From Dehalococcoidia bacterium (GTDB taxonomy: Bacteria; Chloroflexota; Dehalococcoidia; GIF9; AB-539-J10), in contig JAUWGZ010000001.1 in assembly GCA_030606165.1 (NCBI GenBank), forward strand, positions 1-43,918: DNA of 43,918 nt, given 5' to 3'. The notes beneath the pieces are model-generated. The model worked only from the letters and a program-made list of their open reading frames with translations. It searched no databases and was not told the origin of the DNA. The number at the start of each line of letters is the position of its first letter. The first letter of the stretch is position 1. The position numbers and the translations under genes were made by a program. This document shows, piece after piece, positions 1,237-40,566 of the stretch.

Positions 1237-1254
1237 GGCGTTCCCCTGACATGG

Positions 1255-7647: not shown

Positions 7648-7901
7648 TCACCCATTTGTACCTGTTATTCCGTTACTTTAGTCCTGGCTTGTTCAGCGGC
7701 TCCTGTTGGTCGGACACCTGATGCAAAGCACTGGCATTCCGACCGGCCGCCAGCGGAATGGGTTCGCCATATTCTGGGAGAGAGGTGTGAATTAATGGGA
7801 GGTGCTCGCGAAATTGTTGAGTTTCAGCTTCGATTTCCCCGAGCAGAAGGGCAACGGGGTAGCCTCAAGTGGACCCAACTCCTGGTGAACGACTCCCCCG
7901 A

Positions 7902-24957: not shown

Positions 24958-25430
24958 GGGTTGGCATTGGCTGTGACAGCCATCCCCTGGTTTCGGGGCG
25001 AAGGCTAATTTTGGGGGGCGTTGATATTCCTTATGATAAAGGCTTGTCGGGCTGGAGCGATGCTGATGTGGCAACGCACGCCATAATAGATGCTTTATGC
25101 GGCGCTGCTGATTTGGGCGACATTGGCACCTTATTCCCTTCTCAGGAACCGGAATATAAAGATATTTCAAGCTTGGTTTTGTTAAGCAAAACCGGTGAAC
25201 TGCTTAAAACCAAAGGACTCAGGGTGGTCAACATTGATGTTACCATCATAGCTCAAAGCCCCAAGCTTTCCCCTTTCATCCCTGAGATGAGAAAACGCAT
25301 AGGTCAGGCCTTAGGTATAGATTCAACACAGGTGACGATCAAAGCCACCACCACCAACGGTTTGGGCTTCATCGGCAGGGGAGAAGGAATAGCTGCTCAA
25401 TCCGTAGCTTTAATCACCACCATCTCGTAA
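24942..25430 (+). CDS. ispF: 2-C-methyl-D-erythritol 2,4-cyclodiphosphate synthase
   Basis: GIGCDSHPL and SDADVATHAI motifs, 162 aa. It overlaps the ispD end by 16 nt. Confidence 0.93.
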   Translation: MEKELRVGIGCDSHPLVSGRRLILGGVDIPYDKGLSGWSDADVATHAIIDALCGAADLGDIGTLFPSQEPEYKDISSLVLLSKTGELLKTKGLRVVNIDVTIIAQSPKLSPFIPEMRKRIGQALGIDSTQVTIKATTTNGLGFIGRGEGIAAQSVALITTIS

Positions 25431-25681
25431 CTTGGCTTGCTCTCTTTCCAGGAAATTACAAATTTAACCTGCTTGCCTTCTATTAAGTGTCTTTCGCTTT
25501 GGCTGCGGAGCTTTTTAAAGTCCATTGATTCCAGGAAGGCTTTGAGCAGCTCAATTCTACCCTCAAGTTTTTTATCCTCCTGCCCACCTTCCATATATTG
25601 GTTTACTGAATTCCAGAATTCCTCCTTGGCTGTAGTTTCTATACAGTGGGAGAGGCTGGGAAAAAGCTCAACGCCATCCAT
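25397..25681 (-). CDS. Hypothetical protein (94 aa)
   Basis: Charged, helical-looking composition, unlike the opposite-strand ORF. However, there is no clear SD and it overlaps ispF convergently by 34 nt. Confidence 0.35.
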   Translation of the reverse strand: MDGVELFPSLSHCIETTAKEEFWNSVNQYMEGGQEDKKLEGRIELLKAFLESMDFKKLRSQSERHLIEGKQVKFVISWKESKPSYEMVVIKATD

Positions 25682-25694
25682 AATTTAATTTGTA

Positions 25695-25761
25695 CCACCA
25701 AGTGGTGGCTATGGTCAAAATTTGACAAATTTGACAGGATCTATTATCATTATTATTGACA
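25695..25761 (+). promoter_or_regulatory. Control region upstream of the DUF134 operon: palindrome, tandem AATTTGACA repeat and candidate promoter
   Basis: Inverted repeat CCACCA-AG-TGGTGG (25695-25708). AATTTGACA x2 in tandem (25719-25736). A third TTGACA at 25756-25761. The best promoter fit is TTGACA (25722-27), 17 nt, TATCAT (25745-50). Confidence 0.35.
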
Positions 25762-25799
25762 TATGTTCAAAATTCGTAGCGGAGATGGGGTGATTTTTA

Positions 25800-26273
25800 A
25801 TGGCTAGGCCAGAAAAGTTGCGATGTGTTGCTCAGTTGCCGAATGTAGGCTTTTTTAGGCCGGTGGGGATTCCGGCAAATGCTTTACAGGGTATTCGCCT
25901 TTCACTTGGGGAACTTGAGTCTATCCGTCTTAAGGATTTGGAGGGGCTGGAACAGGAAGAATGTGCGCAGCAAATGCATATTTCCAGGCCGACTTTCCAT
26001 CGCATATTGGGATCGGCTCGGAAAAAGCTGGCTGATGCTCTGATTAATGGCAAGGCAATCCAAATCGAAGGGGGCAACTTTGAACTCCCCCAACGTCGCT
26101 TTAGATGTGGCAACGATGGACATGAGTGGAATGTGCCTTTTGAGGCAATGGCACAGAGGCTTCCTTTGTCTTGCCCGGTGTGCTTCAGTGGGAATATCCA
26201 GCCCATACCTTTGCCTCCATTTGCTACAGGCAGAGGATATGGCAGAGGATTTCGCGGTGGCAGATGCCGGTAA
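25800..26273 (+). CDS. DUF134 (UPF0251/COG1342)-type putative DNA-binding protein with C-terminal zinc ribbon and RG-rich tail
   Basis: P-x-V-x-FFRP-x-GIP, LSLGELESIRLKDLEGLEQEECAQQMHISRPTFHRIL is the family signature as I recall it. The C-terminal CGNDGH...CPVC is followed by GRGYGRGFRGGRCR. Confidence 0.8.
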   Translation: MARPEKLRCVAQLPNVGFFRPVGIPANALQGIRLSLGELESIRLKDLEGLEQEECAQQMHISRPTFHRILGSARKKLADALINGKAIQIEGGNFELPQRRFRCGNDGHEWNVPFEAMAQRLPLSCPVCFSGNIQPIPLPPFATGRGYGRGFRGGRCR

Positions 26274-26301
26274 TAAATAAAAAAGAAAGGGGGTGATGGA
26301 G

Positions 26302-26547
26302 ATGCCGTTTGGAGATGGAACTGGACCGATGGGCCTAGGTCCAATGACCGGAAGGGGAGCTGGCTTCTGTGCTGGTTTTGCCAGGCCAGGCTTCGCCAGC
26401 CCAATGCCTGGTTACTCTTACCGCTACGGTTACGCTGGTTTAGCACCGGTGTGGCCTAGGTGGGGCTGGGGGTTCGGTCGTGGCCTTGGTCGTGGCCTTG
26501 GGCGTGGCTGGTGGAGATGGGGACCTTATGGGTACCCTCGGTGGTAA
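26302..26547 (+). CDS. DUF5320-like protein: N-terminal MPxGDGTGP motif + Gly/Trp/Arg-rich tail
   Basis: MPFGDGTGPMGLGPMTGRGAGFCAG... then GWGFGRGLGRGLGRGWWRWGPYGYPRW. ATG 26302 is preferred over GTG 26293 because all paralogs start with MP and because of RBS spacing. Confidence 0.75.
   Translation: MPFGDGTGPMGLGPMTGRGAGFCAGFARPGFASPMPGYSYRYGYAGLAPVWPRWGWGFGRGLGRGLGRGWWRWGPYGYPRW
26476..26511 (+). repeat. 12-nt tandem repeat (GGTCGTGGCCTT x2 plus a degenerate third copy) encoding GRGL repeats
   Basis: The units at 26476-26487 and 26488-26499 are identical. 26500-26511 is diverged. Confidence 0.8.
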
Positions 26548-26627
26548 GTTTTAAATTTTCTTAAGGAGGTGGTAAAATGTGACCTTGGTATGGATTTTCA
26601 TGTCCTTGGGGATGGCCTGGGTATAGA

Positions 26628-26777
26628 ATGCCTTATGGGTATCCCTATGGCGGATATGGCTATCCTTGGGGAGCTATACCCAAGGAGGAAGAGATAGTCA
26701 TGCTTGAAGAGCAGAGAAGATATCTGACTAGCGAATTGGATGGAGTGACAAAGAGGCTTGAAGAACTTCGCAAATAG
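26628..26777 (+). CDS. Small Tyr/Gly/Pro-rich + coiled-coil protein (DUF5320 C-terminal-like); start unresolved, see finding on ATG-TGA at 26577
   Basis: MPYGYPYGGYGYPWGAIPKEEEIVMLEEQRRYLTSELDGVTKRLEELRK. The C-terminal KRLEELRK is identical to that of the next gene. The strong RBS (AAGGAGGTGG) serves ATG 26577 rather than ATG 26628. Confidence 0.5.
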   Translation: MPYGYPYGGYGYPWGAIPKEEEIVMLEEQRRYLTSELDGVTKRLEELRK

Positions 26778-26791
26778 AAAGGAGGTGAGAA

Positions 26792-27187
26792 ATGCCTAAT
26801 GGATATGGTAGAGGATTTGGCAGAGGAGGAGGAGGATGGGGATTCGGTTTTAGAGGAAGCTCTCCTCCCTGGCCTTATGTTGGCAGAGGAAGGGGAGGAT
26901 TGCCTAGGGGTGGCTATTTCCTCAGTGGAGCTGCGGGGATGCCTGTCCCGCCGGGCTATCCCTCTTATGGTAGCCCTGGGGTTATGCCTTATGGAGGAAC
27001 AGCTTATCCGGGAGCTATGCCATATAGCGGTTATGCTGGGGCAGCTATGGGAGCAATGCCAGGAGCAGACCCTTATGCTCCGCAGATGACCCGGGAGCAG
27101 GAACTGGATTTCTTAAGAAACCAGGCTGGAGTGTTGGAGAGTGAGTTAGATGTAATTAGGAAGAGACTGGAGGAGCTTCGCAAGTAA
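26792..27187 (+). CDS. Gly/Pro/Tyr-rich low-complexity protein with DUF5320-type C-terminal coiled coil (131 aa)
   Basis: MPNGYGRGFGRGGGGWGFGF... then PYAPQMTREQELDFLRNQAGVLESELDVIRKRLEELRK. RBS AAAGGAGGTG. Confidence 0.75.
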   Translation: MPNGYGRGFGRGGGGWGFGFRGSSPPWPYVGRGRGGLPRGGYFLSGAAGMPVPPGYPSYGSPGVMPYGGTAYPGAMPYSGYAGAAMGAMPGADPYAPQMTREQELDFLRNQAGVLESELDVIRKRLEELRK

Positions 27188-27236
27188 AGAAGTGAGGTTT
27201 GTGTACATAATATTTAAATTGAAAAGGAGGTGAATT

Positions 27237-27572
27237 ATGCCAGGATTTGATGGAACGGGACCACGTGGAATGGGCCCAATGACGGGAGGAGGAAGAGGTT
27301 TTTGCAGCCCTTGGAGTATAGGCAGGGGATATGGTTTTGGGCGAGGATATGGCTTTGGAGGGGGATACGGGTTTGGAATGGGCATGCCTTATGCAGGGCC
27401 TGCACCATATAGTTATGCTGGGGCACCTACGGGGGCAGTGCCAGGAGCGTACCCCTATGCACCGCAGATGACCCGGGAGCAGGAGCTGAATTTCCTAAAA
27501 AGCCAGGCTGAAGCAATAAAGGGACAATCGGAGCAAATTGATGCTAGAATAAAAGAACTGGAGACAGAGTAA
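27237..27572 (+). CDS. DUF5320-like protein with all three modules (N motif, GY-rich linker, coiled coil)
   Basis: MPGFDGTGPRGMGPMTGGGRGFC..GRGYGFGRGYGFGGGYGFG..PYAPQMTREQELNFLKSQAEAIKGQSEQIDARIKELE. RBS AAAGGAGGTG. Confidence 0.8.
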   Translation: MPGFDGTGPRGMGPMTGGGRGFCSPWSIGRGYGFGRGYGFGGGYGFGMGMPYAGPAPYSYAGAPTGAVPGAYPYAPQMTREQELNFLKSQAEAIKGQSEQIDARIKELETE

Positions 27573-27590
27573 ACTAGAAAGAGGTGCATC

Positions 27591-28187
27591 ATGAAAATTG
27601 CAGTATCAGCAACAGGGCTTGACTTAGATGCTGAGGTGAACCCTCGCTTTGGAAGGTGCCAATACTTCGTCATTGTTGACCCCCAGAGCATGGAGTTTGA
27701 GGCCTTGGATAACTCTAATGCTATGGCCGCTGGTGGGGCAGGCATCAGCACAGCCCAGATGATTGCCAGCAAAGGGGCGGAGGTCGTGCTAACGGGTAAT
27801 TGTGGACCTAATGCCTATCAGACACTATCCGCCGCAGGTCTTCAGGTAATCACCGGCGTTGCCGGGAGAATAAGAGACGCTGTTGAAGCTTACAAGGCAG
27901 GGAAGTTTCAATCAACCGCTCAACCTAGTGTAGCAGCCCATTATGGAATGGGAGCTACTCCCGGCATGGGAATGGGTGGAGGTATGGGCATGGGTCGTGG
28001 CATGGGCAGAGGAATGGGCATGGGTAGAGGCATGGGAATGGGGGAAACAATGCCCATGGCAGAGCCGCCACCTCAAGCCATGAGCTCGGAGCAGGAAGTA
28101 GAGATGCTTAAAAACCAGGCTCAAGCGATGAGCCAGCAGCTAAATGAGATTCAACGTCGCATCGAAGAGCTAGAGAAAGGGAAGTAA
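27591..28187 (+). CDS. NifX/NifB-C-terminal/ORP-like (PF02579) domain fused to a Met/Gly/Arg-rich tail and coiled coil
   Basis: MKIAVSATG..VNPRFGRCQYFVIVD...GAGISTAQMIASKGAEVVLTGNCGPNAYQTLSAAGLQV is a typical Nitro_FeMo-Co fold signature. It is followed by GMGMGGGMGMGRGMGRGMGMGRGMGMG and SSEQEVEMLKNQAQAMSQQLNEIQRRIEELEK. Confidence 0.85.
   Translation: MKIAVSATGLDLDAEVNPRFGRCQYFVIVDPQSMEFEALDNSNAMAAGGAGISTAQMIASKGAEVVLTGNCGPNAYQTLSAAGLQVITGVAGRIRDAVEAYKAGKFQSTAQPSVAAHYGMGATPGMGMGGGMGMGRGMGRGMGMGRGMGMGETMPMAEPPPQAMSSEQEVEMLKNQAQAMSQQLNEIQRRIEELEKGK
27964..28043 (+). repeat. Degenerate short tandem repeats (GGCATGGG-type) encoding (G/R)MG repeats
   Basis: The run ggcatgggaatgggtggaggtatgggcatgggtcgtggcatgggcagaggaatgggcatgggtagaggcatgggaatggg read directly from the sequence. 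Confidence 0.75.
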
Positions 28188-28190
28188 GCT

Positions 28191-28415
28191 ATGCCCATCT
28201 ATGAGTATCAGTGCACTCACTGTGGGGGGAGGTTCGAAGTTCGCCAAGCTATTGGCGAGGATGGTTCCAATTTAAGTTGTCCTGAGTGTCATGCTGGAAA
28301 ACCGAGAAGGCTCCTTTCCTCATTCTTTAGCTCAAGGTCAAGCACAACTGGTCCGTCGGAAGCAAGTTGTCCTACCTGTAGCTCTGGAGTTTGCGGACTG
28401 CCACCGATGGAGTAA
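28191..28415 (+). CDS. FmdB-family zinc-ribbon protein, copy 1
   Basis: MPIYEYQCTHCGGRFEV....LSCPECHAGKPRRLLS is the CxxC_CxxC_SSSS signature. Its tail carries CPTCSSGVC. Confidence 0.85.
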   Translation: MPIYEYQCTHCGGRFEVRQAIGEDGSNLSCPECHAGKPRRLLSSFFSSRSSTTGPSEASCPTCSSGVCGLPPME

Positions 28416-28444
28416 AACAAAACCAATTCTTAGCGAGGTGAGTT

Positions 28445-28666
28445 ATGCCAAGAGGAGATGGTACAGGCCCTTATGGGCAAGGTTCAGGAACTGGCAGGGG
28501 GTTAGGCGCCAGGGGTATGGGGAGGATGGGAGGAAACCGCCCTGGCGCGGGTCCCAGTGGGAATTGCGTGTGTCCTAGTTGTGGAACAAAGATTCCTCAC
28601 CAGGCAAGCGTTCCCTGCTATAACCTGAACTGCCCCAAGTGTGGGGCAAAGATGATTCGGGAATAG
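28445..28666 (+). CDS. DUF5320 N-terminal motif fused to a C-terminal Cys-rich zinc ribbon (73 aa)
   Basis: MPRGDGTGPYGQGSGTGRGLGARGMGRMGG... then CVCPSCGTKIPHQASVPCYNLNCPKCGAKM. Confidence 0.75.
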   Translation: MPRGDGTGPYGQGSGTGRGLGARGMGRMGGNRPGAGPSGNCVCPSCGTKIPHQASVPCYNLNCPKCGAKMIRE

Positions 28667-28667
28667 A

Positions 28668-29528
28668 ATGATAGTCTCTGTTGCCAGTGGTAAAGGTGGC
28701 ACAGGAAAGACGCTGGTGGCTACCAGCTTAGCTCTTTCCCTGAGCGATAACTATAAGGTTCAACTGTTGGACTGTGATGTAGAGGAGCCAAATGCTAATA
28801 TTCTTCTGCATCTAGCTGTGAACCAAAGCCAACCCGTGTATATTCCTATCCCCAAGGTGGACGAAACGAAATGTACTTATTGTGGCAAATGCGCTGAAGT
28901 CTGCGCCTATAACGGTATTGCGGTGCTTAAGGAAAAAGTGCTTGTTTTCCCTGAACTGTGTCATGGTTGTGGAGCATGTTCTTACCTATGCCCTGAGTCT
29001 ACTATTACTGAGGAAGGAAGAGAGATGGGGGTAGTTGAAAGAGGCGATTCAGGGAATTTGGAATTAATTCAAGGGAAGATTAACGTTGGCGAAGCGATGG
29101 CTCCACCCGTAATCAGGGAGGTAAAGAAGTATATTGACCCTGCAAATATAGTAATCATCGATGTTCCTCCGGGAACTTCTTGTCCTGTAGTAGAGACGGT
29201 AAAGGGGAGCGATTTTTGTCTCCTCGTGACCGAGCCTACTCCTTTTGGGCTAAATGACCTTTCACTGGCAGTGGAGGTAGTGAGAAAACTGGGTATGCCC
29301 TGTGGGGTGGTAATTAATCGTGTTGGAATAGGAGGCGAGGAAGTTGAGCGGTATTGCCATCGGGAAGAAATAGCAATTTTAATGAGAATCCCCCTGGATA
29401 GAAAGATCGCCATGTTTTATTCGAAGGGAATTCCCTTGGTAGAAGGGATGCCTCGGTGGCGTGAGGATTTTCTCAAACTTTTTCAGGACATCAAAGATAT
29501 AATTGCTGCTAGCTGGGTAGTAAAATGA
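28668..29528 (+). CDS. MinD/ParA-superfamily P-loop ATPase with inserted 2x[4Fe-4S] ferredoxin module (COG1149-type), copy 1
   Basis: Deviant Walker A SGKGGTGKT. Insert CTYCGKCAEVC...CHGCGACSYLCP. Walker B IIDVPPG. Confidence 0.88.
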   Translation: MIVSVASGKGGTGKTLVATSLALSLSDNYKVQLLDCDVEEPNANILLHLAVNQSQPVYIPIPKVDETKCTYCGKCAEVCAYNGIAVLKEKVLVFPELCHGCGACSYLCPESTITEEGREMGVVERGDSGNLELIQGKINVGEAMAPPVIREVKKYIDPANIVIIDVPPGTSCPVVETVKGSDFCLLVTEPTPFGLNDLSLAVEVVRKLGMPCGVVINRVGIGGEEVERYCHREEIAILMRIPLDRKIAMFYSKGIPLVEGMPRWREDFLKLFQDIKDIIAASWVVK

Positions 29529-29725
29529 TGGACTGGCAAGAACTTGCCATAGATGGTGAAACACACCTCAAAAGGGTAGTGGGTATGTATCAAGAGCTAG
29601 GCTTTAAAGTTCGCCTGGAGGAAGTTAAGCCTGAAGAAGTTGAGCATTGCACTCAATGTTTGCAAGAGAAGGGGGAAAGTATATACCGAGTCTATGCCCG
29701 ACGCAAGCCAGAAAGTCAGGAGTAA
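29525..29725 (+). CDS. Small hypothetical protein (66 aa) between the two ATPase genes
   Basis: ATGA start/stop overlap with the upstream gene, and its stop directly abuts the next ATG. It contains one CTQC motif. No family recognised. Confidence 0.55.
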   Translation: MMDWQELAIDGETHLKRVVGMYQELGFKVRLEEVKPEEVEHCTQCLQEKGESIYRVYARRKPESQE

Positions 29726-30586
29726 ATGAAAGAAGTCGTGGTTCTTAGTGGCAAGGGAGGAACAGGGAAGACATCTATTGTGGCATCCTTTGCGTCCCTA
29801 GCCCAAAGTAAGGTATTAGTTGACTGTGATGTAGATGCCGCCGACCTTCATCTCCTCCTTAAACCAAAGGTTAAGGAGGAAAAGGAATTCTGGAGCGGGC
29901 GAGTCGCTTTCATAGACGAAGATAAGTGCACAGAATGTGGCTTATGTCAGGAATTGTGCCGCTTTGGAGCCATTAAGGATTTTAAAGTTGACCCTCTCTC
30001 CTGTGAAGGCTGCGGCTTCTGCTACCAGGTTTGCCCTGTTGATGCCATCGCTATGAAGGACAGCATGAGTGGGCATTCGTTTATCTCGGAAACCAAATAC
30101 GGTTATTTATGCCACGCCAGGTTGGGTATTGCCCAGGAAAACTCAGGAAAGTTGGTGGCGCTAGTGCGGCAGAACGCCAAGCTCATCGCTGAGAGGGAAA
30201 ATTTAGACTATATCATCACCGATGGTCCTCCGGGCATAGGCTGCCCGGTTATCTCCTCGCTATCGGGTGCCAGTCTGGCATTGTTGGTGACCGAGCCTAC
30301 GCTATCAGGGATTCATGACCTTGAGCGGGTCATTGGCGTTTGCCGCCACTTCGGCGTTCCTGTTTTAGTTTGCGTAAATAAATATGACCTCAATGAAGAG
30401 AATACCTGTCGAATTGAAAGCTATTGTGGCAACGAGGGAATAGAGGTGAGTGCAAGGATTCCTTTTGATAATGTAATAACTGAAGCGATTGTTCAGGGAC
30501 TGCCGGTAGTAGAATACTCCAACAACAAGGTAACGCAGCAGATAAAAGAGCTATGGCAAATTATTCCAGCCAAACTAGAAAAATAG
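29726..30586 (+). CDS. MinD/ParA-superfamily P-loop ATPase with inserted 2x[4Fe-4S] ferredoxin module (COG1149-type), copy 2
   Basis: SGKGGTGKT, CTECGLCQELC...CEGCGFCYQVCP, ITDGPPG. Same 286-aa length as copy 1. Confidence 0.88.
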   Translation: MKEVVVLSGKGGTGKTSIVASFASLAQSKVLVDCDVDAADLHLLLKPKVKEEKEFWSGRVAFIDEDKCTECGLCQELCRFGAIKDFKVDPLSCEGCGFCYQVCPVDAIAMKDSMSGHSFISETKYGYLCHARLGIAQENSGKLVALVRQNAKLIAERENLDYIITDGPPGIGCPVISSLSGASLALLVTEPTLSGIHDLERVIGVCRHFGVPVLVCVNKYDLNEENTCRIESYCGNEGIEVSARIPFDNVITEAIVQGLPVVEYSNNKVTQQIKELWQIIPAKLEK

Positions 30587-30595
30587 GAGGTAGAG

Positions 30596-30841
30596 ATGCC
30601 AATTTATGAATACAGATGCTTGGAATGCGGGAGGAATTCAGAGATATTTCTCCGTAGCCTTAACAGCCAAAATGTCCAATGTTCAGTATGCGGCAGCCGC
30701 AAGCTAGAGAGGCTTCTCTCCGCCTCGTATACTCTGAAGACTGATGCCTCTACACCTGGCACGACTTGTTGTGGCAGGACAGAACGCTGTGAGACACCTT
30801 CTTGCTCCTTGGACGACACTTGCAGGAGGGATAATAAATGA
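30596..30841 (+). CDS. FmdB-family zinc-ribbon protein, copy 2
   Basis: MPIYEYRCLECGRNSEIF....VQCSVCGSRKLERLLS, with a Cys-rich tail (TTCCGRTERCETPSCS). Confidence 0.85.
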   Translation: MPIYEYRCLECGRNSEIFLRSLNSQNVQCSVCGSRKLERLLSASYTLKTDASTPGTTCCGRTERCETPSCSLDDTCRRDNK

Positions 30842-31176
30842 GATTCGCAGTACCTATAGTAGAAGGTAAGGTGGCTGCTCACTTTGGCCATTGCAGCCAT
30901 TTCGCCTTATTTGATGTTGATGAGGCGGCTATGGCAGTTGTGAGCAAGGAGACCATACCGTCGCCAGGACATCAACCTGGGCTTCTTCCTGCATGGCTGG
31001 CTGAAGAGGGAGTTTCCGTTGTTATAGCTAGTGGCATGGGTTCCAGGGCCCAAGCGATTTTCAGCGAGAATCACATTGAAGTCGTTGTTGGCGTGCTTGG
31101 TGATGAACCTGAGAAGGCTGTTTTGGATTATATAAAAGGCGAGTTGGCAAGCGGCGGTAATATATGTGACCATTAA
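30838..31176 (+). CDS. NifX/NifB-C-terminal/ORP-like (PF02579) single-domain protein
   Basis: MRFAVPIVEGKVAAHFGHCSHFALFDV...VIASGMGSRAQAIFSENHIEVV. ATGA overlap with the upstream gene. Confidence 0.85.
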   Translation: MRFAVPIVEGKVAAHFGHCSHFALFDVDEAAMAVVSKETIPSPGHQPGLLPAWLAEEGVSVVIASGMGSRAQAIFSENHIEVVVGVLGDEPEKAVLDYIKGELASGGNICDH

Positions 31177-31265
31177 GGATAACGGCAAAAAGGGGACAAA
31201 AGCATTTTCCAACGATAGCAATTTGAACCCTGAGGAGGTGATTAAAGAGGCGAAATAGGGAACAA

Positions 31266-31883
31266 ATGATTATTGTTGGTCTGACAGGAAGTGTGGGCAC
31301 AGGCAAAAGCACGGTAACCAATTTTTTTAGAGAACTGGGGGCTTATATAATTGATTGGGATGAGCTAGCTCGGGAGGTAACCCGTCCTCACTTAAGAGCT
31401 TGGAAAGAAATAGTAGAGTATTTTGGAAAGGATTTCTTAAGTGAAGGCCTGACCATCAATCGGCAGAAGCTGGCTGAGATAGCATTTTCCGACAAAGAAA
31501 AGGTGGCAAAGCTAAATCAGATAGTTCACCCCGAGGTGTTTAAGGAAGACGAAAGAATTACAAATGAGATCAAAAGCCTTGACCCCGGTGCTCTAATTAT
31601 TAAGGACATTCCGTTACTGTTTGAACTTACTCGCCCTATATTTGTGGATAAAGTAGTCGTTGTTTCTGCCAGTGAACAAACTCAATTAAGACGATTAGAA
31701 GAAAAGGGGATGAGTCGGGAGGATGCCCAAAGCAGGATAAAGTCCCAACTTCCTCTTGAGGAAAAGATTAAATCTGCCGATTTTGTTATTAATAATGATG
31801 GTCCGCTTGAAGAGACAAAGAAGCAGGTAGAGGAAATATATTCTTTGTTAAGGAAAGGAGAGCAACATGGAAAGCAGAGGTAA
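31266..31883 (+). CDS. coaE: Dephospho-CoA kinase
   Basis: IVGLTGSVGTGKST P-loop and the family-typical ..IVHPEV.. region, 205 aa. Confidence 0.9.
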   Translation: MIIVGLTGSVGTGKSTVTNFFRELGAYIIDWDELAREVTRPHLRAWKEIVEYFGKDFLSEGLTINRQKLAEIAFSDKEKVAKLNQIVHPEVFKEDERITNEIKSLDPGALIIKDIPLLFELTRPIFVDKVVVVSASEQTQLRRLEEKGMSREDAQSRIKSQLPLEEKIKSADFVINNDGPLEETKKQVEEIYSLLRKGEQHGKQR

Positions 31884-31916
31884 GTGGGAGACCTTTTGCC
31901 AGCAGGAGGTGATTTG

Positions 31917-32927
31917 GTGAATCAAATCGATGCAAAATTAGAAGAAGCACTGAATAAAGTGCTTGTCCCCGGAACAATGCGTAGCTTGGTACAGATGAAC
32001 TTGGTTCGAAGCGCGGAAGTTAAGGAAGGCAAGGCGAAAATAAATTTGGCTTCGACTGCTATCCCTGACCAATATCATAGTGGGCTGAAGGACAAAGCAG
32101 CGGCAGCGGTTAGCGAGGTTTCCGGGGTGGAGGAAGTAACTGTTGACCTTGTCGAAGCCAAGCCCAAAGAGCTTAATCAGATTGAGAAAATAATAGCGGT
32201 CATGAGTGGCAAAGGAGGAGTGGGCAAATCTCTGGTAACTGGTTTGTTGGCTACTGCTTTTGCTCGGGAAGGCAAGGCTGTTGGCGTGCTCGACGCTGAT
32301 ATCACTGGCCCCAGTATTCCCAAGATGTTTGGTTTAGGTGCTCGCCCCAGCGGTAGCGAGACAGGTATTTTGCCCGTATTATCGAGGTCTGGAATTGAAA
32401 TTATGTCCATGAATCTGCTTTTGCCTAGTGAAGATGAAGCGGTTATCTGGAGAGGCCCCCTCATGTCTAAAGCTATCACGCAATTCTGGGAGGAAGTTCT
32501 TTGGGGCAAGCTGGATTATCTGGTAATAGACCTGCCCCCGGGCACTGGAGATGCCCCATTGACGGTGCTTCAGGCAATACCCATCTCAGGGGTAATCGAT
32601 GTTTTTACTCCTCAGGAGTTGACTGAGATGATAGTCAAGAAGGCAGTGAGGATGGCACAAAAGATGAATGTTCGAGTTTTGGGAGTAGTGGAGAACATGA
32701 GCTATCTCGTATTGCCTGACACAGGTAAGAAGATGGAAATTTTTGGCAGGAGCAAAGGGGAAGAAATGGCTAAGGCCTCCGGAGCTCCTCTTTTGGGGCA
32801 ATTGCCTATTGATCCCGAGCTAGCCAGGTTGTGCGACCAGGGAGAAATTGAGAGGTATAGCTCAGATGCTGTGTCTGAACTTTTTACCAATGTGGTCGCA
32901 GTTCTAAATGGGAAGAATGAAGGGTAG
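31917..32927 (+). CDS. Mrp/NBP35/ApbC-family P-loop ATPase with N-terminal DUF59-like domain, lacking the CxxC cluster-binding motif
   Basis: MSGKGGVGKS, WGKLDYLVIDLPPGTGD, VVENMSY. GTG 31917 lies 5 nt after AGGAGGTG, although the ORF is open from 31884. There is only one Cys in the whole protein. Confidence 0.85.
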   Translation: MNQIDAKLEEALNKVLVPGTMRSLVQMNLVRSAEVKEGKAKINLASTAIPDQYHSGLKDKAAAAVSEVSGVEEVTVDLVEAKPKELNQIEKIIAVMSGKGGVGKSLVTGLLATAFAREGKAVGVLDADITGPSIPKMFGLGARPSGSETGILPVLSRSGIEIMSMNLLLPSEDEAVIWRGPLMSKAITQFWEEVLWGKLDYLVIDLPPGTGDAPLTVLQAIPISGVIDVFTPQELTEMIVKKAVRMAQKMNVRVLGVVENMSYLVLPDTGKKMEIFGRSKGEEMAKASGAPLLGQLPIDPELARLCDQGEIERYSSDAVSELFTNVVAVLNGKNEG

Positions 32928-32988
32928 CTATGCGCAGTCAGGCAAGTTGGTTCAGCCCGTGAAATCTTTTTCTAGAGAAGTAAAGAAA

Positions 32989-33450
32989 ATGGCACAAGAA
33001 TTTGATGACTCGTTCAAAGAAGTGGAGCAATCCGTTATGGAGGATATGGAAAGGGTCTACTCGGAAAAAACGATTGACCATTTTCTGAACCCCAGAAATC
33101 TGGGTGAAATTTCTGCCCCCGATGGATTTGGCAGGGTCACTGGTCCTTGTGGGGATACCATGGAAATATATCTCAGGGTAAATAGTGACAAGATTGTCAA
33201 TACTACCTTCTGGACCGATGGCTGTGGTACTAGCATTGCCTCGGGCAGTATGGTTACCGAGATGGCTAAGGGAAGGAACGTCAGCGAAGCTCAGAGGATT
33301 AGCCAGCATGATGTCTTAGCTGCTCTAGGTGGGCTGCCTGAGGAAAGCGAGCATTGTGCTCTTTTGGCGGCAAATACGCTGAAGGAAGCGATTAGAGACT
33401 ACCTAGGTATAAAAAGAGAGCCTTGGAAAAGAGCTTACCGCAGATATTGA
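32989..33450 (+). CDS. IscU/NifU-N-terminal-type Fe-S cluster scaffold protein
   Basis: DHFLNPRNLG, GPCGDTM, TDGCGTSIASGS and EHCALLAANTLKEAI carry the three conserved scaffold cysteines. The start is uncertain: the ORF is open from 32908, with other in-frame ATGs at 32917 and 33037. Confidence 0.8.
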   Translation: MAQEFDDSFKEVEQSVMEDMERVYSEKTIDHFLNPRNLGEISAPDGFGRVTGPCGDTMEIYLRVNSDKIVNTTFWTDGCGTSIASGSMVTEMAKGRNVSEAQRISQHDVLAALGGLPEESEHCALLAANTLKEAIRDYLGIKREPWKRAYRRY

Positions 33451-33464
33451 GGAGTGAATATAAA

Positions 33465-34106
33465 GTGCCTCCTGTAGTTTCTATTGTGGGTAAATCAAAA
33501 TCTGGTAAAACAACTGTCATTGAAAGGCTGGTTCAGGAACTGAAATCCAGAGGTTACCGGGTGGCTACAATCAAACATGCTCCCCTAGGCGCTAGCTTTG
33601 ATGAACCGGGTAAGGATAGCTGGTATCACATTGAGGCAGGAAGCGAGGCCACGGTAGTTAGCTCACCGGATAATCTCGTGCTGGTAAAGCCTGTTTCCCA
33701 GGATTCTCCCCTTGAAGAGATAGTACGTCTCTTAGGTGAGGATTACGATATCATCCTTACAGAAGGTTTCAAACAAGAGGGCACTCCAAAGATAGAGGCA
33801 CATCGCAGAGATACTGGCCCACCGTTGAAAGATATCAAAAAGCGTATAGCCATAGTCACCAATGAACCGTTGGAAACCAAGGCTAGGCAGTTTTCATTTG
33901 AAGATAATAAGAGCCTGGCTGACCTGTTGGAGAGAGGCTTCATCAAGCCACAGAAGGAGCGAATCTCTCTTTACGTAAATAATACTCCTATACCTTTGAC
34001 CAGTTTTCCCAAGCAGATTATCACGGATATGCTTGTGGCTATGGCCTCGTGCCTGAAGGGAGTAAAGGAAATCAGTAGTCTCCAGATTTTCCTGAGGAAG
34101 GAATAA
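33465..34106 (+). CDS. mobB: Molybdopterin-guanine dinucleotide biosynthesis adapter MobB-like GTPase with C-terminal extension
   Basis: [32 protein letters not shown] 33465 is preceded by GAGGAG. About 50 extra C-terminal residues compared with a typical MobB. Confidence 0.8.
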
Positions 34107-34114
34107 GCACGGAA

Positions 34115-34528
34115 GTGAAGGACTATTATCAGATTCTTGGTGTAAGCACAGACGCCGGTTCTGAAGATACCAAGAAAGCCTTCCGCCGACTGGCTCTACG
34201 TTATCATCCTGACCGCAACCCTGGAAATACCAAAGAAGCTGAGGCCAGGTTCAAGGAGATAAATGAGGCTTATGAAGTGCTTGGCAATGAACAAAAGAGA
34301 CGCGAGTATGATTATTTGACTGGACATAGGCAAAGCCAGACTGAAAGGGTGAGAGTGAATACGGTTTTCAGGGGCAGCCTGGACGATTTTACTTATCACA
34401 GTCTTGAAGAGCTTTTAAGGATTCTGGCGGCATTGAATTTCGACGGTACTGAATTATTCATGGAGCAGCGTAAAGGTTGTCGTAAATTCCGTCGGGGGCA
34501 TCAATGTCGGCGTGGATATTGGCGTTGA
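34115..34528 (+). CDS. Stand-alone J-domain protein (137 aa) with basic Cys-containing tail
   Basis: DYYQILGV...[16 protein letters not shown]...[21 protein letters not shown] contains the HPD motif. No Gly/Phe or zinc-finger DnaJ regions are present. Confidence 0.85.
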
Positions 34529-34581
34529 ATCTTGTAGTGCATTTATGGACTTTAATTTAAGTCTAAAGGTTAGGTTCTGAG

Positions 34582-35382
34582 ATGGCAATTATTTATGGCC
34601 CTGTTGCTTCATGGCGCTTGGGCAGCTCGCTGGGTATAGACCTTCTAAATACGAGAAGGAAGGTCTGCTCCTTTAATTGCGTCTATTGCCAGTTGGGTGA
34701 GACCAGCCAATTTGTCGTCGAGCCAAAGGAATTCATCAGCCTGGAACAACTAACCAGTGAAATCGAGTTGCTCAGGCCGGTAGAGGCTGATTACGCCACT
34801 TTTTCTGGCATGGGTGAGCCTACACTGGCCAGTAATCTTGGCGAGGCGATTGAGCTTGCAAGGTCAATTTTGGATTTACCCATAGCTGTGCTCACCAATT
34901 CTTCGCTCATGTTCCGCCAAGATGTAAGGCAGCGGCTTGCCCGGGCCAACGTGGTAGTGGCTAAGCTAGATGTGCCCAATGCGAATTTGTTTGCCAAGGT
35001 TAATAAACCGGCTTCAGGCTTGCGTTTTGACCTCATAGTGGATGGCATGAAGCGGTTCAGAGACACATATCGGGGCAAATTAGCCCTGCAGGTAATGTTT
35101 ATTGCCGCTAACAAGGATTATGCCTCGGAGATGGCAGCGCTGGCTCGTCAGATTTCGCCTGACGAGGTGCAAATAAATACACCTTTACGCCCCTGTGCTG
35201 TGAGACCACTACCGCCTAAAAGCATAGCTGAGGTACAGAGAGAATTTACCAATTTCGAAAATGTTGTCACTGTATACGAGGCACGAAAGTACAAAGTTCT
35301 GCCGCTTGATTTGGCGGAGACATTGCGACGTCGCCCTGAACTTGATGACAGCGTTGGTTCTTTCAAGTTGCATGGAAGCTAA
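34582..35382 (+). CDS. Radical SAM protein (266 aa)
   Basis: CSFNCVYCQLG is a CxxxCxxC triad, preceded by YGPVASWRLGSSLGIDL and followed by GMGEPTL. Confidence 0.8.
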   Translation: MAIIYGPVASWRLGSSLGIDLLNTRRKVCSFNCVYCQLGETSQFVVEPKEFISLEQLTSEIELLRPVEADYATFSGMGEPTLASNLGEAIELARSILDLPIAVLTNSSLMFRQDVRQRLARANVVVAKLDVPNANLFAKVNKPASGLRFDLIVDGMKRFRDTYRGKLALQVMFIAANKDYASEMAALARQISPDEVQINTPLRPCAVRPLPPKSIAEVQREFTNFENVVTVYEARKYKVLPLDLAETLRRRPELDDSVGSFKLHGS

Positions 35383-36142
35383 GCCGAAAGGCGAACTGAC
35401 CTCAGAAAAGGAGGAAATCAAGCCTGGTGTTGAGGCAACAATTACTATCGTCTACGACAATAACAACTATGATAGTCGCCTCACGCTGGCCGGGGGCTTC
35501 TCCTGCGTGGTCAAACTCCCAGAGAAGACTATCCTTTTTGATACTGGAGGTGATGGCACAATACTGCTCAGCAACGTGGCGAAGGTAGATATCGACCCTG
35601 AGGAGATAGATACAGTGGTGTTATCACATATACATGGCGATCATACCGGAGGATTGGACAAGTTTCTGAAACAAAATAGTCAAGTGACGGTTTATATGCC
35701 GCTATCTTTCCCCCAATCAATGAAGCAAAATGTCAAGTCTTCTGGGGCAATCGTTGTAGAGGTGCATGAACCTCGACAGTTGACTGATGGTGTATTTACT
35801 ACCGGGGAGCTCGATGGCGGAGTGAGAGAGCAATCGCTGCTGGTAAGAACATCGAGAGGATTGGTGGTGATAACTGGCTGCGCTCATCCGGGAATAGTAA
35901 ACATGGTGAAAAAGGCAAAAGAAGTTACTGGGGATAAAGTATATCTGGTCATGGGTGGCTTTCACCTTCGTCGAGCGTTCCCATCTCAGCTTAGCTACGT
36001 AGCGGAAAACTTGCTGCACTTGGGGGTAGAAAGAGTGGCACCGTGCCATTGCAGTGGCGATGACGCTAGGAAGCTGTTCAAAGATTACTTCGGCGAGAAC
36101 TACATTGACTGCGGAGTAGGCAAAGAGATAGTAATAAGATAG
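35372..36142 (+). CDS. MBL-fold metallo-hydrolase (COG1237-like), copy 1
   Basis: HIHGDHTGG, then TGCAHPG and APCHCSGD. The start is ambiguous: ATG 35372 or ATG 35345, and the ORF is open from 35261, overlapping the upstream gene. Confidence 0.8.
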   Translation: MEAKPKGELTSEKEEIKPGVEATITIVYDNNNYDSRLTLAGGFSCVVKLPEKTILFDTGGDGTILLSNVAKVDIDPEEIDTVVLSHIHGDHTGGLDKFLKQNSQVTVYMPLSFPQSMKQNVKSSGAIVVEVHEPRQLTDGVFTTGELDGGVREQSLLVRTSRGLVVITGCAHPGIVNMVKKAKEVTGDKVYLVMGGFHLRRAFPSQLSYVAENLLHLGVERVAPCHCSGDDARKLFKDYFGENYIDCGVGKEIVIR

Positions 36143-36150
36143 GGGGAAGC

Positions 36151-36984
36151 ATGAATATCATCACTTTAATTGAGAACACTGCGGGCAGAACAGGCGTACT
36201 GGCTGAATGGGGACTAAGCATCCTTGTGGAGCTAGACGGCTTGACAGTTCTTCTTGATAGTGGGGAGAGTGGCTCAGTAGTCCACAACGCCTCCGAATTA
36301 AGTGTAGATCTCTGCACTATAGACAAGATTGTCCTGAGCCATAGTCACTGCGACCACACGGGAGGACTCCGTGAGCTGCTCATGGCGATGAGGAAGCGAG
36401 TAGAAATAATCGCCCACCCTGATATCTGGGATGCCAAGTATGTCAAACGCCCAGGAGAAGCAGAATATAGGTACATTGGTATACCATTCCAGAGGGAGGA
36501 ATTAGAGAGCCTTGGAGCTTCGTTTATACTCAGTTCTAAACCCGTATGGATAAGCGACTGCATCGTGACCACAGGCGAAATTCCTCTGCTCACTGATTAT
36601 GAAAAAGTAGACCCTAACCTCTATGTTAAAAAAGAGGACACTTTTCAGTCTGACCCTGTTAGAGATGATATGGCGTTGGTGATTAAGACTGGCCATGGCT
36701 TAGCAATAGTTACTGGCTGTGCTCACCGGGGCATCGTTAACACTTTGCGCCACGCCCGGAAACTAACCGGGGTGGAAGTTATTGATACCGTGGTTGGTGG
36801 CACACACTTGATCCGTGCCACGGAGGAACAAACTGAGTCAACCATTGCTGAGCTGAAGAAATTTGGTATCAAAAGGCTGGGAGCCTGCCACTGTACTGGC
36901 TTTCCTGCCACAATAAGGCTAGCTCAGGAATTTAGCGAGGTCTTTTTCCCTAACAATGCCGGCACCCGCCTTGAAATAAGCTAG
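36151..36984 (+). CDS. MBL-fold metallo-hydrolase (COG1237-like), copy 2
   Basis: HSHCDHTGG, TGCAHRG and GACHCTG. It is a tandem paralog of the preceding gene. Confidence 0.85.
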   Translation: MNIITLIENTAGRTGVLAEWGLSILVELDGLTVLLDSGESGSVVHNASELSVDLCTIDKIVLSHSHCDHTGGLRELLMAMRKRVEIIAHPDIWDAKYVKRPGEAEYRYIGIPFQREELESLGASFILSSKPVWISDCIVTTGEIPLLTDYEKVDPNLYVKKEDTFQSDPVRDDMALVIKTGHGLAIVTGCAHRGIVNTLRHARKLTGVEVIDTVVGGTHLIRATEEQTESTIAELKKFGIKRLGACHCTGFPATIRLAQEFSEVFFPNNAGTRLEIS

Positions 36985-38500: not shown

Positions 38501-38641
38501 CTACACCCATTTCTCTACCCATCTCTCTGTTTTTTCGTTGCCACAATTGGGGCACTTCACCTGTTCATCCATCTCTGAGAAACGACGAAAAACTTCGAAC
38601 ACCTTTCCACATTCTCTGCATTTATAATCATAGGCAGGCAT
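38501..38641 (-). CDS. FmdB-family zinc-ribbon protein, copy 3 (46 aa), absent from the ORF track
   Basis: My translation is MPAYDYKCRECGKVFEVFRRFSEMDEQVKCPNCGNEKTERWVEKWV*. RBS GGAGAAAC. It overlaps the end of the upstream methyltransferase gene by 14 nt. Confidence 0.75.
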   Translation of the reverse strand: MPAYDYKCRECGKVFEVFRRFSEMDEQVKCPNCGNEKTERWVEKWV

Positions 38642-39350
38642 AGTTTCTCCTTTTATTCAGGTTGTGAGCATAAACATAGTCGCACTTTTCAAAATTATTC
38701 CCCACCTCTAGATCATCCAAAGAAACGCTTTGCACCTGAAATTCCAATCCTTGAAGATATTGGACAAGTTCCTGAACCGATTGACCTAGTTGTTTCAAGA
38801 AATCGTGGTGGATCTCACAAAATATCTTGACTTTATTTTTTCGCAAGGTTTCCTTAGCTCCCTTAAGGACCAATAGCTCGCTCCCTTCACAGTCCATATT
38901 AATCAAATCTATTCTTTCTATCTTCTCCCCAATTAAGAATCTGTCTATAGTAGTAGTGGACACTTCAAACCTTTTGGCTCCTTCTTCAAAAACGATCCCA
39001 CTGGAGAGCCCCTTTTGGTAAAAAGGGGCTCTCCCCACCTGATCAGTCACTGCTAGTTCATAAGCCTCAACATTTTCTAGTCTGTTAGAGGATATATTCT
39101 TGTTCAGGGTGTCGAAATACTGAGGAAGCGGCTCAAAGGAGTAAAGCTTGCCTCTCCTTCCTATTTTCTTTGCTACGGCCACAGTAGTGATACCTATATT
39201 GGCGCCAATATTGATGACGTTCATCCCTTCTTCGACGATTGACCCCAAGAATTTTATCTCTCCTCGTTCATGAGGATTATCTTTTAGAAAATTCTTGAGG
39301 CCAGGTGAATCATAAAGAAAAAGCTCTATTTCCATTCCTAAATACCTCAA
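38628..39350 (-). CDS. FkbM-family methyltransferase
   Basis: NVINIGANIGITTVAVAKKIG..GKLYSFEP and INMDCEGSELLVLKG are typical of the FkbM family. Confidence 0.8.
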   Translation of the reverse strand: MRYLGMEIELFLYDSPGLKNFLKDNPHERGEIKFLGSIVEEGMNVINIGANIGITTVAVAKKIGRRGKLYSFEPLPQYFDTLNKNISSNRLENVEAYELAVTDQVGRAPFYQKGLSSGIVFEEGAKRFEVSTTTIDRFLIGEKIERIDLINMDCEGSELLVLKGAKETLRKNKVKIFCEIHHDFLKQLGQSVQELVQYLQGLEFQVQSVSLDDLEVGNNFEKCDYVYAHNLNKRRNYACL

Positions 39351-39709
39351 GTCCGCTTGTTGCTTCTTACAACAGAAACACCTCCCGGCGTTAGATCAAC
39401 CTTGTTACCTTCTATTTCTATGAAATATGAACTCTTAAGGAAGTTAAGGTGGAATCTTAGTGCAGGTCCTGTTATTCCTACTCTTTCAGAAATTTCATTT
39501 ATTGCCAAAGCTCTTTCCTTTAAAACATTTAGAATGCGTCTACGAACGGGATTTTTTATGGCTTCGAGAGAACATGCACCTCCCGCAGAGCCTTTCTCTT
39601 CCACTAACTTGCTAACTAATTCTTGCATCCACCTCATTGCTTCCTCATCAGTCATTTCTCTAGGGTCTCGTCGAGTAGAATCCATTTCAACCTCCCGCTC
39701 AATAAGCAT
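39347..39709 (-). CDS. ArsR-type winged-helix transcriptional regulator
   Basis: IKNPVRRRILNVLKERALAINEISERVGITGPALRFHLNFLKSSYFI. It overlaps the downstream gene by 4 nt. Confidence 0.7.
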   Translation of the reverse strand: MLIEREVEMDSTRRDPREMTDEEAMRWMQELVSKLVEEKGSAGGACSLEAIKNPVRRRILNVLKERALAINEISERVGITGPALRFHLNFLKSSYFIEIEGNKVDLTPGGVSVVRSNKRT

Positions 39710-39726
39710 TGTCTAGACACATCGTT

Positions 39727-40491: not shown

Positions 40492-40566
40492 TCACTTTCC
40501 TCCGTTCATCAATGTCCTTCCTCGAACCTCCGGCAGTTAGAAAATCTGCTGCACGTTCCTCTCTTT

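Follow-up and report, generated by a model that had tools for sequence, protein, structure and literature searches.

We have analysed a 43,918-nucleotide (nt) stretch of DNA from a Dehalococcoidia bacterium (contig JAUWGZ010000001.1, positions 1-43,918; the window), in which positions 25800-32927 probably represent one operon-like array of an orange protein (ORP) complex-type system, as judged from its genes and their relatives. Genes are named below by the position at which they start (Table 1), and single loci of a comparison set of about 170 related loci by L numbers. The reference system is that of Desulfovibrio vulgaris Hildenborough, with the operons orp5-orp4-orp3 and orp7-orp8-orp9 under the control of OrpR, sigma54 and IHF (PMC8359166). 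All gene and domain calls made in this region by a preceding sequence-only reading hold. Profile searches placed the DUF134-like helix-turn-helix (HTH) protein at 25800 in PF02001 (E 2.8e-24) and both 27591 (E 3.1e-24) and 30838 (E 2e-21) in PF02579; the two MinD/ParA ATPases with an inserted ferredoxin module (28668, 29726) have a CbiA/ParA domain and two Fer4 motifs each in Pfam, and the two FmdB ribbons (28191, 30596) are Zn_ribbon_8 in Pfam and TIGR02605 in NCBIfam. The Mrp/NBP35-type ATPase expected after coaE, whose likely GTG start at 31917 follows AGGAGGTG, matches FeS_assembly_P and PF10609 (E 7.6e-91). The proposed match to the orp operons of D. vulgaris stands for the core parts, but two defining features of that system, a fused MrpORP and sigma54/OrpR control, are lacking here.

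The assignment as an ORP-type locus, already made from the letters of the DNA, is carried by the 27591 protein and by the ATPase pair. The PF02579 domain of 27591 finds its best Protein Data Bank (PDB) match in the orange protein of D. gigas (2WFB, E 4.1e-21 to 1.6e-20), with 44% identity in an alignment with D. gigas ORP and its relatives and 47% to the ORPs of Desulfovibrio sp. JY (L090) and Fundidesulfovibrio butyratiphilus (L091). This protein is a fusion of PF02579 with a DUF5320 (PF17253) tail (44.3 bits, E 4e-11), the ORP fold and the terminal helix being joined by a Met/Gly/Arg-rich, disordered linker. Its AlphaFold (AF2) model has a predicted local distance difference test (pLDDT) score of about 90 in the ORP fold, below 50 in residues 110-162 and of 85-90 in the helix 166-197. 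PF02579 and PF17253 occur together in 119 of the 120 best relatives of 27591, and relatives of the fusion are proteins from Dehalococcoidia/Chloroflexota metagenome-assembled genomes (MAGs); an exact copy of it was found only on a Logan contig of 1.6 kb. The DUF5320-like small genes noticed before comprise four free DUF5320-type proteins; the tail of 27591 had not been seen as part of a fusion.

In the ATPase alignment both ATPases share the invariant deviant Walker A motif SGKGGTGKT, eight ferredoxin cysteines and the motif DxPPGxxCP. ATPase 1 shares 43% identity with the first ATPase in L090 and 40% with that in L091; ATPase 2 is 48% and 45% identical to the second, versus 31-33% to the first. 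Altogether, each shares 40-48% with its matching partner of the Desulfovibrionaceae pair and 27-33% with the other. On these identities ATPase 1 is assigned as the orthologue of the first ATPase, and ATPase 2 as that of the second, in both Desulfovibrio sp. JY and Fundidesulfovibrio butyratiphilus, and the paralogous pair as the predicted counterparts of Orp3 and Orp4. Among solved structures, the ATPase body is nearest to archaeal MinD, and its match to NifH is weak. The idea of a NifH-like cluster that bridges at the invariant Cys of DxPPGxxCP was left as a remark, as the body is MinD-like and the family is without a solved structure.

The third core component, MrpORP (NF041136; Orp9/Dde_3202), is present in two pieces. 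The second PF02579 protein, 30838, is of another subtype than 27591, with TM1290 as its best PDB match, and it matches positions 265-365 of the NF041136 model (116 bits, E 2e-33). The Mrp protein 31917 matches positions 1-245 of 365 with 314.8 bits and fits this P-loop part better than ApbC (224 bits); its identity to the Mrp of L090, and likewise to that of L091, is 41%. The two matches cover complementary parts of the model, and Orp9 is therefore represented here by two genes, as a split MrpORP. Both proteins stay below the 450-bit cut-off for the two-domain form, which true MrpORP fusions of six Desulfobacterales/Syntrophobacterales loci pass with 498-518 bits: 31917 consists of DUF59 (PF01883) and ParA (PF10609) only, a Pfam scan revealed no PF02579 domain in it, and the second domain is encoded separately at 30838. 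The domains are thus not fused as they are in MrpORP, and at its N terminus the Mrp carries DUF59 in addition. CoaE lies between the two genes in the sub-lineage of the window and also in L002 and L004; Mrp comes directly after the PF02579 gene in other loci of Chloroflexota (L011, L012, L015, L018, L019, L021). The Mrp-NifU pair also stands beside ORP in Desulfovibrio sp. JY, and in L004; with this conserved linkage, the NifU/IscU-type scaffold (32908) is likely the supplier of the system.

As in the D. vulgaris ORP complex, the window combines adjacent paralogous MinD-type ATPases with 2x[4Fe-4S], an ORP-type PF02579 protein, an Mrp-class Fe-S carrier with the PF02579 domain that Orp9 has fused, and, as judged by gene position, a small Cys-rich protein directly 5' of the ATPases, and both occur in anaerobes only. 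In contrast to it, the window has one co-directional array; a sigma70-type promoter, a DUF134 gene and a palindrome replace OrpR, sigma54 and IHF; MrpORP is in two genes with CoaE between; and the ORP has a DUF5320 tail and is accompanied by four extra DUF5320 genes, two FmdB genes and p66, an orphan protein of 66 amino acids (aa). A complex of the encoded proteins is putative.

The comparison with other genomes places these differences in a wider frame. A genome scan anchored on the ATPase alignment gave at least 541 relatives (600 stretches examined), of which the best 80 loci from at least 25 lineages were kept, including Omnitrophota, Ignavibacteria, Zixibacteria, Clostridia, Desulfobacterota, Bathyarchaeia, methanogens and Thorarchaeota. 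Locus-derived profiles, applied up to 6 kb from the ATPase pair, found any PF02579 protein in 73 of the 80 loci and an ORP-type one in 65; DUF5320, free or fused, in 46, with the ORP::DUF5320 fusion in 19; Mrp in 36 and the MrpORP fusion in six; the 73-aa protein p73 in 31, FmdB in 30, DUF134 in 21 and p66 in four. Many loci end at contig edges, therefore these counts are lower bounds. The expectation that the genes would be linked in related genomes is thus borne out in 80 genome loci. A metagenome scan anchored on the N-terminal (N) motif of DUF5320 led to the same neighbourhood, with ATPase, PF02579 or DUF134 genes in 28 of 29 loci of at least 5 kb; in the lone exception DUF5320 lies at the contig end.

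Among the best 80 loci the closest is that of a Dehalococcoidia MAG (ATPase 85% identical). Long contigs of relatives have the order ClpC, RadA, IspD, IspF, a divergent AF_2379-like gene, DUF134, DUF5320 genes, ORP::DUF5320, FmdB, p73, ATPase, (p66), ATPase, FmdB, PF02579, CoaE, Mrp and NifU. The array is heavily expanded, as had been noticed, in a way typical of Dehalococcoidia relatives, which have up to four free DUF5320 genes plus the fusion; by this comparison the locus itself appears ordinary for its lineage. The co-linear form, taken before as a different architecture, is common: it was found in most of the 80 loci and in many phyla, with DUF134 at the head where present, in at least 25 bacterial and archaeal lineages including cultured Desulfovibrionaceae. 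Loci with ORPs 68-74% identical to the D. gigas protein (L006-L009) are co-linear, reading DUF134, an RG/GQ-rich small protein, ORP, ATPase, ATPase, PF02579, FmdB and a receiver-like protein in L008/L009, and similarly in L006 and L007. Desulfovibrio sp. JY has Mrp, NifU, ORP, ATPase, ATPase, PF02579 and FmdB, and Fundidesulfovibrio has DUF134, an RG-rich 76-aa protein, a DUF134::ORP fusion, ATPase, ATPase, FmdB and Mrp. The single-array form, with or without an adjacent DUF134, is therefore widespread. Nor are the small genes, taken before as lying outside the described complex, peculiar to this locus, since DUF5320, p73 and FmdB recur with the ATPase pair in Bacteria and Archaea. From these gene orders, the sigma54/OrpR arrangement of D. 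vulgaris looks like a special case; OrpR is seemingly restricted to delta-Proteobacteria, and the ORP system is possibly of archaeal origin (PMC8359166).

Some genes of relatives are missing from the window. Desulfobacterota ORP loci close with a receiver-like protein, conserved and some 120 aa long, that has a weak Response_reg match (L006 11089-11460, L007 10705-11079, L008 10955-11317, L090 9261-9620), and L004 carries a DUF1847 gene (13549-14259) after its second PF02579 gene.

The control region of the array deserves special attention. TTGACA-17-TATCAT is the best sigma70-type site in 25300-34200 and lies 50 nt before the ATG of the DUF134 gene. In agreement with the sequence-only reading, no sigma54 -24/-12 site with up to two mismatches was found in 25431-25799 and no Sigma54_activat domain among the open reading frames (ORFs) scanned with Pfam; window-wide, sigma54-like sites are at chance level (21 versus 23.7 expected). 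Sigma54 control was rejected for lack of a -24/-12 site upstream, where a sigma70-type promoter stands instead. No Rfam family matches anywhere in the window.

Lining up the DNA upstream of DUF134 genes revealed a 20-bp palindrome with the consensus TTATGAACATATGTTCATAA, located 7-80 nt before the DUF134 start codon in 36 of 38 non-redundant cases. A symmetric position weight matrix (PWM) of this palindrome was used with a threshold of at least 18 bits to scan 1.69 Mb, i.e., all loci and the window, and gave 51 sites, against a block-shuffle mean of 0.4 and maximum of 2; 47 of them fall between -60 and +250 nt relative to an ORP-system gene start. The window has a single site, which starts 3 nt after the -10 element and therefore covers the expected transcription start; the other 50 are distributed over loci L002-L167. 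Loci in which DUF134 is not adjacent (L006, L036, L044, L045, L052, L077, L084) have sites as well, ahead of ORP, ATPase, FmdB, PF02579, Mrp or DUF5320 genes, which gives some independence from the PWM training set. Archaeal loci have weaker variants. The palindrome is likely the operator of DUF134, and autorepression via this site would be the simplest reading.

The DUF134 protein itself matches PF02001 over positions 5-96 of 98 with 86 bits (cut-off 27 bits) and consists of a sigma70 region-4-like HTH, a C-terminal Cys/His ribbon-like segment and an RG-rich Cys tail. It shares 46-47% identity with the DUF134 proteins of Fundidesulfovibrio. One of these is an ORP fusion, a 230-aa protein in L091 (6486-7178) with a DUF134 HTH and an ORP-type PF02579 domain, which adjoins a second, free DUF134 gene; this fusion suggests a regulator that responds to the state of the cluster carrier. 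Divergent from the DUF134 gene of the window lies a conserved 94-aa gene (25397-25681, minus strand), with which it has a common 118-nt control region. Its orthologues in L002 and L004 carry PF27306 (AF_2379), while a Pfam scan of the window copy gave no significant match.

Another observation concerns the small proteins. The gathering cut-off of PF17253 (27 bits) is passed by 27237 (78.7), 26293 (51.3) and the tail of 27591 (44.3), and missed by 26628 (22.8), 26792 (22.2) and 28445 (19.1); the last three are clear members of DUF5320 only by a profile built from relatives. The family combines the N motif MPxxDGTGPxGxGPMTGRGxGxC, with invariant D, T, G, P, M and C and found in 12 lineages, a low-complexity middle with 20-28% Gly (13-22% aromatic residues in free forms, 17% Met in the ORP tail), and a C-terminal helix of about 32 residues. 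The full-length form 27237 covers positions 1-99 of 99 of the PF17253 profile. Gene 26293 covers positions 1-56, with the MPFGDGTGPMGLGPMTGRGAGFC motif and a G/R/W/Y-rich tail with a terminal Trp, and such N-half-only forms also exist in L065, L027, L086 and L068; gene 26628 has a Y/G/P-rich start and the helix, with counterparts in L010 (68 aa) and in the archaeal L039 and L072. A frameshift splitting these 84-aa and 49-aa genes was considered and rejected because N-only and C-only forms recur across lineages in other phyla. The type B protein 26792 (MPNGYGRGFG...FRGSSPPWPYVGRGRGGLPR and the helix), with a strong Shine-Dalgarno (SD) sequence, has orthologues in L002, L004, L010 and L015-L017. 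A 102-nt stretch is 86% identical between neighbouring DUF5320 genes (27030-27131 and 27412-27513), which suggests recent duplication or gene conversion; a weaker third copy is in the ORP fusion (28080-28130). Elsewhere, a DUF5320 type-B segment with its helix is joined to a 2x[4Fe-4S] ferredoxin (L021 884-1363, L109 about 9393), so that redox modules of several kinds bear the DUF5320 helix.

The p73 protein (28445) combines a DUF5320-like N motif and an RG-rich segment with the ribbon GxCxCPxCG...PH...GxPC....CPxCG..M.R, which contains six Cys and one His. No Pfam or NCBIfam model matches it above cut-off, and its family comprises 1,452 representative clusters at E <=1e-3. In all 31 loci that have it, p73 shares the strand of the ATPases and lies 5' of them; it is their immediate neighbour in about two thirds, the MrpORP-bearing loci L032, L034 and L076 included. 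Since this is the place of orp5 in orp5-orp4-orp3, p73 is probably the best candidate by position for the Orp5 family (small [2Fe-2S]-type protein), with FmdB as the alternative. Fusions of p73 occur with ORP in L028, a Clostridia locus, and with the other type of PF02579 protein in L076. Stretches resembling the p73 ribbon were also noticed, four to ten per protein, in proteins of about 985-1430 aa (P0362, P0364, P0372, P0395).

The FmdB proteins 28191 and 30596 score 66.4 and 48.1 bits with TIGR02605 (cut-off 31.3) and 62 and 47.7 bits with PF09723 (cut-off 34.4). Type 1 is kept after ORP in Dehalococcoidia loci, and the tail of type 2 across phyla. For p66 (29525) no Pfam, NCBIfam or PDB match was obtained; homologues are in the same place in L004, L011, L013 and L020, and after ATPase 2 in L065. 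Cross-phylum conservation, invariant motifs and in-frame fusions argue that the DUF5320 forms and p73 are real genes.

From these parts we infer, for the locus as a whole, ATP-driven handling of sulfide-bridged metal clusters. In D. vulgaris, MrpORP carries Fe-S clusters and transfers them in vitro to Orp3-Orp4-Orp8, and ORP binds a Mo-Cu-sulfide cluster non-covalently (PMC6345978). In the window, NifU and Mrp would build Fe-S clusters and deliver them to the ATPase pair and the small Cys-rich proteins. The ATPase heterodimer, by ATP binding and hydrolysis and through its ferredoxin modules, could then assemble, reduce or hand over a sulfide-bridged metal cluster (Fe-S, possibly Mo/W-Cu-S as on purified ORP), which the PF02579 proteins would carry. 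DUF5320 proteins and tails might serve as adaptors that tether ORP, ferredoxin and ribbon modules together or to the ATPases via helix-helix association, and p73 might do likewise. Transcription would start from the sigma70-type promoter, with DUF134 binding the palindrome over the transcription start, most simply as a repressor, in place of OrpR/sigma54.

The genes that follow NifU may be part of the same functional neighbourhood. At 33423-36984 on the plus strand the window encodes MobB (33423), a DnaJ-domain protein, a radical SAM protein (34582) with weak MoaA/tungsten-cofactor-maturase similarity, and two metallo-beta-lactamase (MBL)-fold proteins; radical SAM and MBL genes also follow NifU in L004. 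The latter locus has, between ispD and ispF, a gene for a 69-aa TOBE protein of the molybdate-binding type (7694-7903), absent from the window. MobB, the radical SAM protein and this TOBE gene are a hint at Mo/W.

Several points weigh against the assignment and the function proposed. The proteins of the Dehalococcoidia lineage are known here from genes alone, the Mo-Cu cluster comes only from purified Desulfovibrio ORP and the window sequence does not show which metal is handled; even in D. vulgaris the physiological role of the ORP complex is not settled (PMC8359166). The PWM was trained on DUF134 upstream regions, a DUF134 gene adjoins no more than 21 of the 80 loci and the protein is predicted to bind the palindrome. 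From more than 541 relatives the genome scan retained the best 80, and Chloroflexota-like sequences are over-represented in the metagenome set. Equivalence to Orp5 and Orp7 is read from gene position only, the adaptor role of DUF5320 is conjectural, and in L172 and L173 relatives of FmdB share the Cys-rich tail without having ORP genes nearby.

A plainer reading would see in the locus a branch of general Fe-S maturation, in which NifU, Mrp and the ferredoxin-type ATPases serve ordinary clients, no Mo, W or Cu is involved and the PF02579 proteins are simple Fe-S carriers. The linkage of Mrp and NifU to the cluster, here and in Desulfovibrio sp. JY, would suit it, but many anaerobes, already equipped with ISC/SUF, can dispense with the ORP system, Mo-related genes are found nearby (MobB, the radical SAM protein, TOBE in L004) and Desulfovibrio ORP as purified has a Mo-Cu-sulfide cluster (PMC6345978); we consider such a branch unlikely. 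Nitrogenase cofactor maturation offers formal parallels, in that NifH, NifX/NafY and NifU likewise combine a P-loop ATPase dimer bearing Fe-S, small cofactor carriers of the PF02579 family and a scaffold of the NifU type. The NifX/NafY/NifB-C family is PF02579 itself, NifU_N lies next to the array and the ATPases belong to the P-loop class of NifH, which they match weakly. However, the ATPase of the window is MinD-like with a ferredoxin insert, the carriers have ORP and TM1290 and not NifX as best relatives, no nifHDK, nifEN or nifB was found among the scanned ORFs of the 44-kb window, and the same cluster exists in many lineages not known as nitrogen fixers. The link to nitrogenase was rejected on the absence of nif genes from the 44-kb window, and an accessory set of this kind is very improbable.

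ParA-type ATPases are paired with disordered coiled-coil partners in other systems, e.g., McdA/McdB of carboxysomes. The array resembles these in having a MinD/ParA-class ATPase beside small proteins that consist of a disordered region and a coiled-coil helix; it differs in showing no sequence relationship and no known cargo body, and in the redox modules of its ATPases. By analogy, the two ATPases might position or compartmentalise, organising a multivalent scaffold or condensate of DUF5320 proteins and p73 with the ORP/ferredoxin modules as cargo. Consistent with this, the DUF5320 regions, with the Gly and aromatic contents given above, have few acidic residues outside the helix and are predicted to be disordered; helix and N motif are portable, being fused to different cargo domains; several paralogues per locus bear signs of gene conversion; the ATPase body is nearest to archaeal MinD among solved structures; and D. 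vulgaris has a cell-shape/division phenotype and a polar MrpORP (PMC6345978, PMC8359166). Against it, phase separation or localisation of these proteins is hypothetical, about 40% of ATPase loci are without DUF5320 nearby, and the redox modules and metal-cluster partners of the ATPases favour chemistry, so that a positioning role is rather improbable. In a bolder variant, which we also rate as doubtful, DUF5320, the ORP tail and p73 would be a hitherto unrecognised, anaerobe-wide scaffold of disordered RG/aromatic- or Met-rich chains, cross-linked by the shared C-terminal helix and organised by both MinD-class ATPases, which concentrates ORP, ferredoxin and ribbon modules in a "metal-cluster assembly body" under a DUF134 repressor switch whose operator is kept from Dehalococcoidia to Desulfobacterota, with a variant in Archaea. 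Another view, that the small low-complexity ORFs (DUF5320 forms, p73, p66) are chance ORFs in GC-skewed spacer DNA, can point to their shortness and biased composition, to three of them falling below the Pfam cut-off, and to the 49-aa ORF and p66 having no clear ribosome-binding site. Protein-level conservation across phyla with invariant motifs, in-frame fusions to ORP, Fer4 and PF02579 elsewhere, a strong SD for most and the 1,452 clusters of p73 leave it next to no credibility. ATP-driven handling of sulfide-bridged clusters is the reading we prefer.

The genes form an unbroken run on the plus strand from 25800 to past 33450 (Table 1). Upstream are radA, ispD and ispF, followed by a 370-nt gap before 25800 which also contains the divergent 94-aa gene. 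The tight same-strand coupling noticed before is real, including the ATGA stop/start overlaps at 29525 and 30838; the gaps, given as about 1-50 nt, actually range within 25800-32927 from -4 to 89 nt, the largest being 80 nt (26547 to 26628) and 89 nt (31176 to 31266). Most small genes have GGAGG-type ribosome-binding sites 5-9 nt upstream; those of the 49-aa gene (26628), p66 and ATPase 1 are weak, and the latter two genes abut the preceding gene.

Table 1 Features of the ORP-type array and its control region in the window
Feature	Position	Strand	Evidence
Sigma70-type promoter TTGACA-17-TATCAT	25722..25750	+	11/12 consensus matches
20-bp palindrome TTATTGACATATGTTCAAAA, candidate DUF134 operator	25753..25772	.	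PWM 29.2 bits
DUF134/UPF0251 HTH protein, putative regulator	25800..26273	+	PF02001
DUF5320, N-half-only	26293..26547, likely ATG 26302	+	PF17253 51.3 bits
DUF5320, C-half-only, 49 aa	26628..26777	+	PF17253 22.8 bits, own profile E 8e-10
DUF5320 type B	26792..27187	+	own profile E 2e-22
DUF5320 type A, full length	27237..27572	+	PF17253 78.7 bits
ORP-type PF02579 carrier (Orp8-like) :: linker :: DUF5320 helix	27591..28187	+	PF02579, PF17253
FmdB-family zinc ribbon type 1, Cys-containing tail	28191..28415	+	PF09723 E 5e-17
p73, Cys6His ribbon	28445..28666	+	locus-derived profile, position
MinD-type ATPase 1 with 2x[4Fe-4S] insert (Orp3/Orp4 class)	28668..29528	+	Pfam
p66, orphan 66-aa protein, one CxxC	29525..29725	+	positional homologues
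MinD-type ATPase 2 with 2x[4Fe-4S] insert	29726..30586	+	Pfam
FmdB-family ribbon type 2, tail TCCGRxERCxTPPCS	30596..30841	+	PF09723 E 1.6e-12, TIGR02605
Second PF02579 protein	30838..31176	+	PF02579 E 2e-21, NF041136
CoaE, housekeeping	31266..31883	+	PF01121 E 5e-51
Mrp/NBP35 Fe-S carrier ATPase, N-terminal DUF59	31917..32927, ORF opens 31884	+	PF10609, PF01883
NifU/IscU-type Fe-S scaffold	32908..33450	+	PF01592 E 9e-35

Elsewhere in the window, the minus strand encodes at 38501-40956 a tail-less third FmdB ribbon (46 aa), an FkbM methyltransferase, an ArsR-type HTH protein, a CbiA/ParA-class ATPase without ferredoxin insert and a PF04060 'FeS' protein; at 12293-13045 a protein of the Actinobacteria/Chloroflexi VLRF1-type release-factor family (acVLRF1, eRF1-like); and at 190-7341 a histidine kinase of 2,028 aa, which contains nine or more PAS domains besides a GAF domain, and after it a receiver-HD response regulator.

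Overall, the ORP complex has so far been studied in one genus only, and the present comparison points to a far wider system in Bacteria and Archaea, of which the D. vulgaris arrangement would be a derived form. For DUF134/UPF0251, DUF5320, COG1149, COG1342 and COG1433 no functional description was found in the searchable literature; the window has members of DUF134 (PF02001) and DUF5320 (PF17253) above the Pfam cut-offs, and their link to ORP loci, as well as the putative operator, come from this analysis of sequences. Parts not tied to ORP in the searchable literature are the DUF134 gene, the 20-bp palindrome, the DUF5320 proteins and tails, the Cys6His ribbon family without a database model and the split MrpORP. 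The palindrome marks the operon start even without an adjacent DUF134 and offers a simple handle to find the regulon in any genome. The value lies not in the locus itself, but in what the comparison reveals on DUF134, DUF5320 and p73, three families of no assigned function that gain a concrete context.

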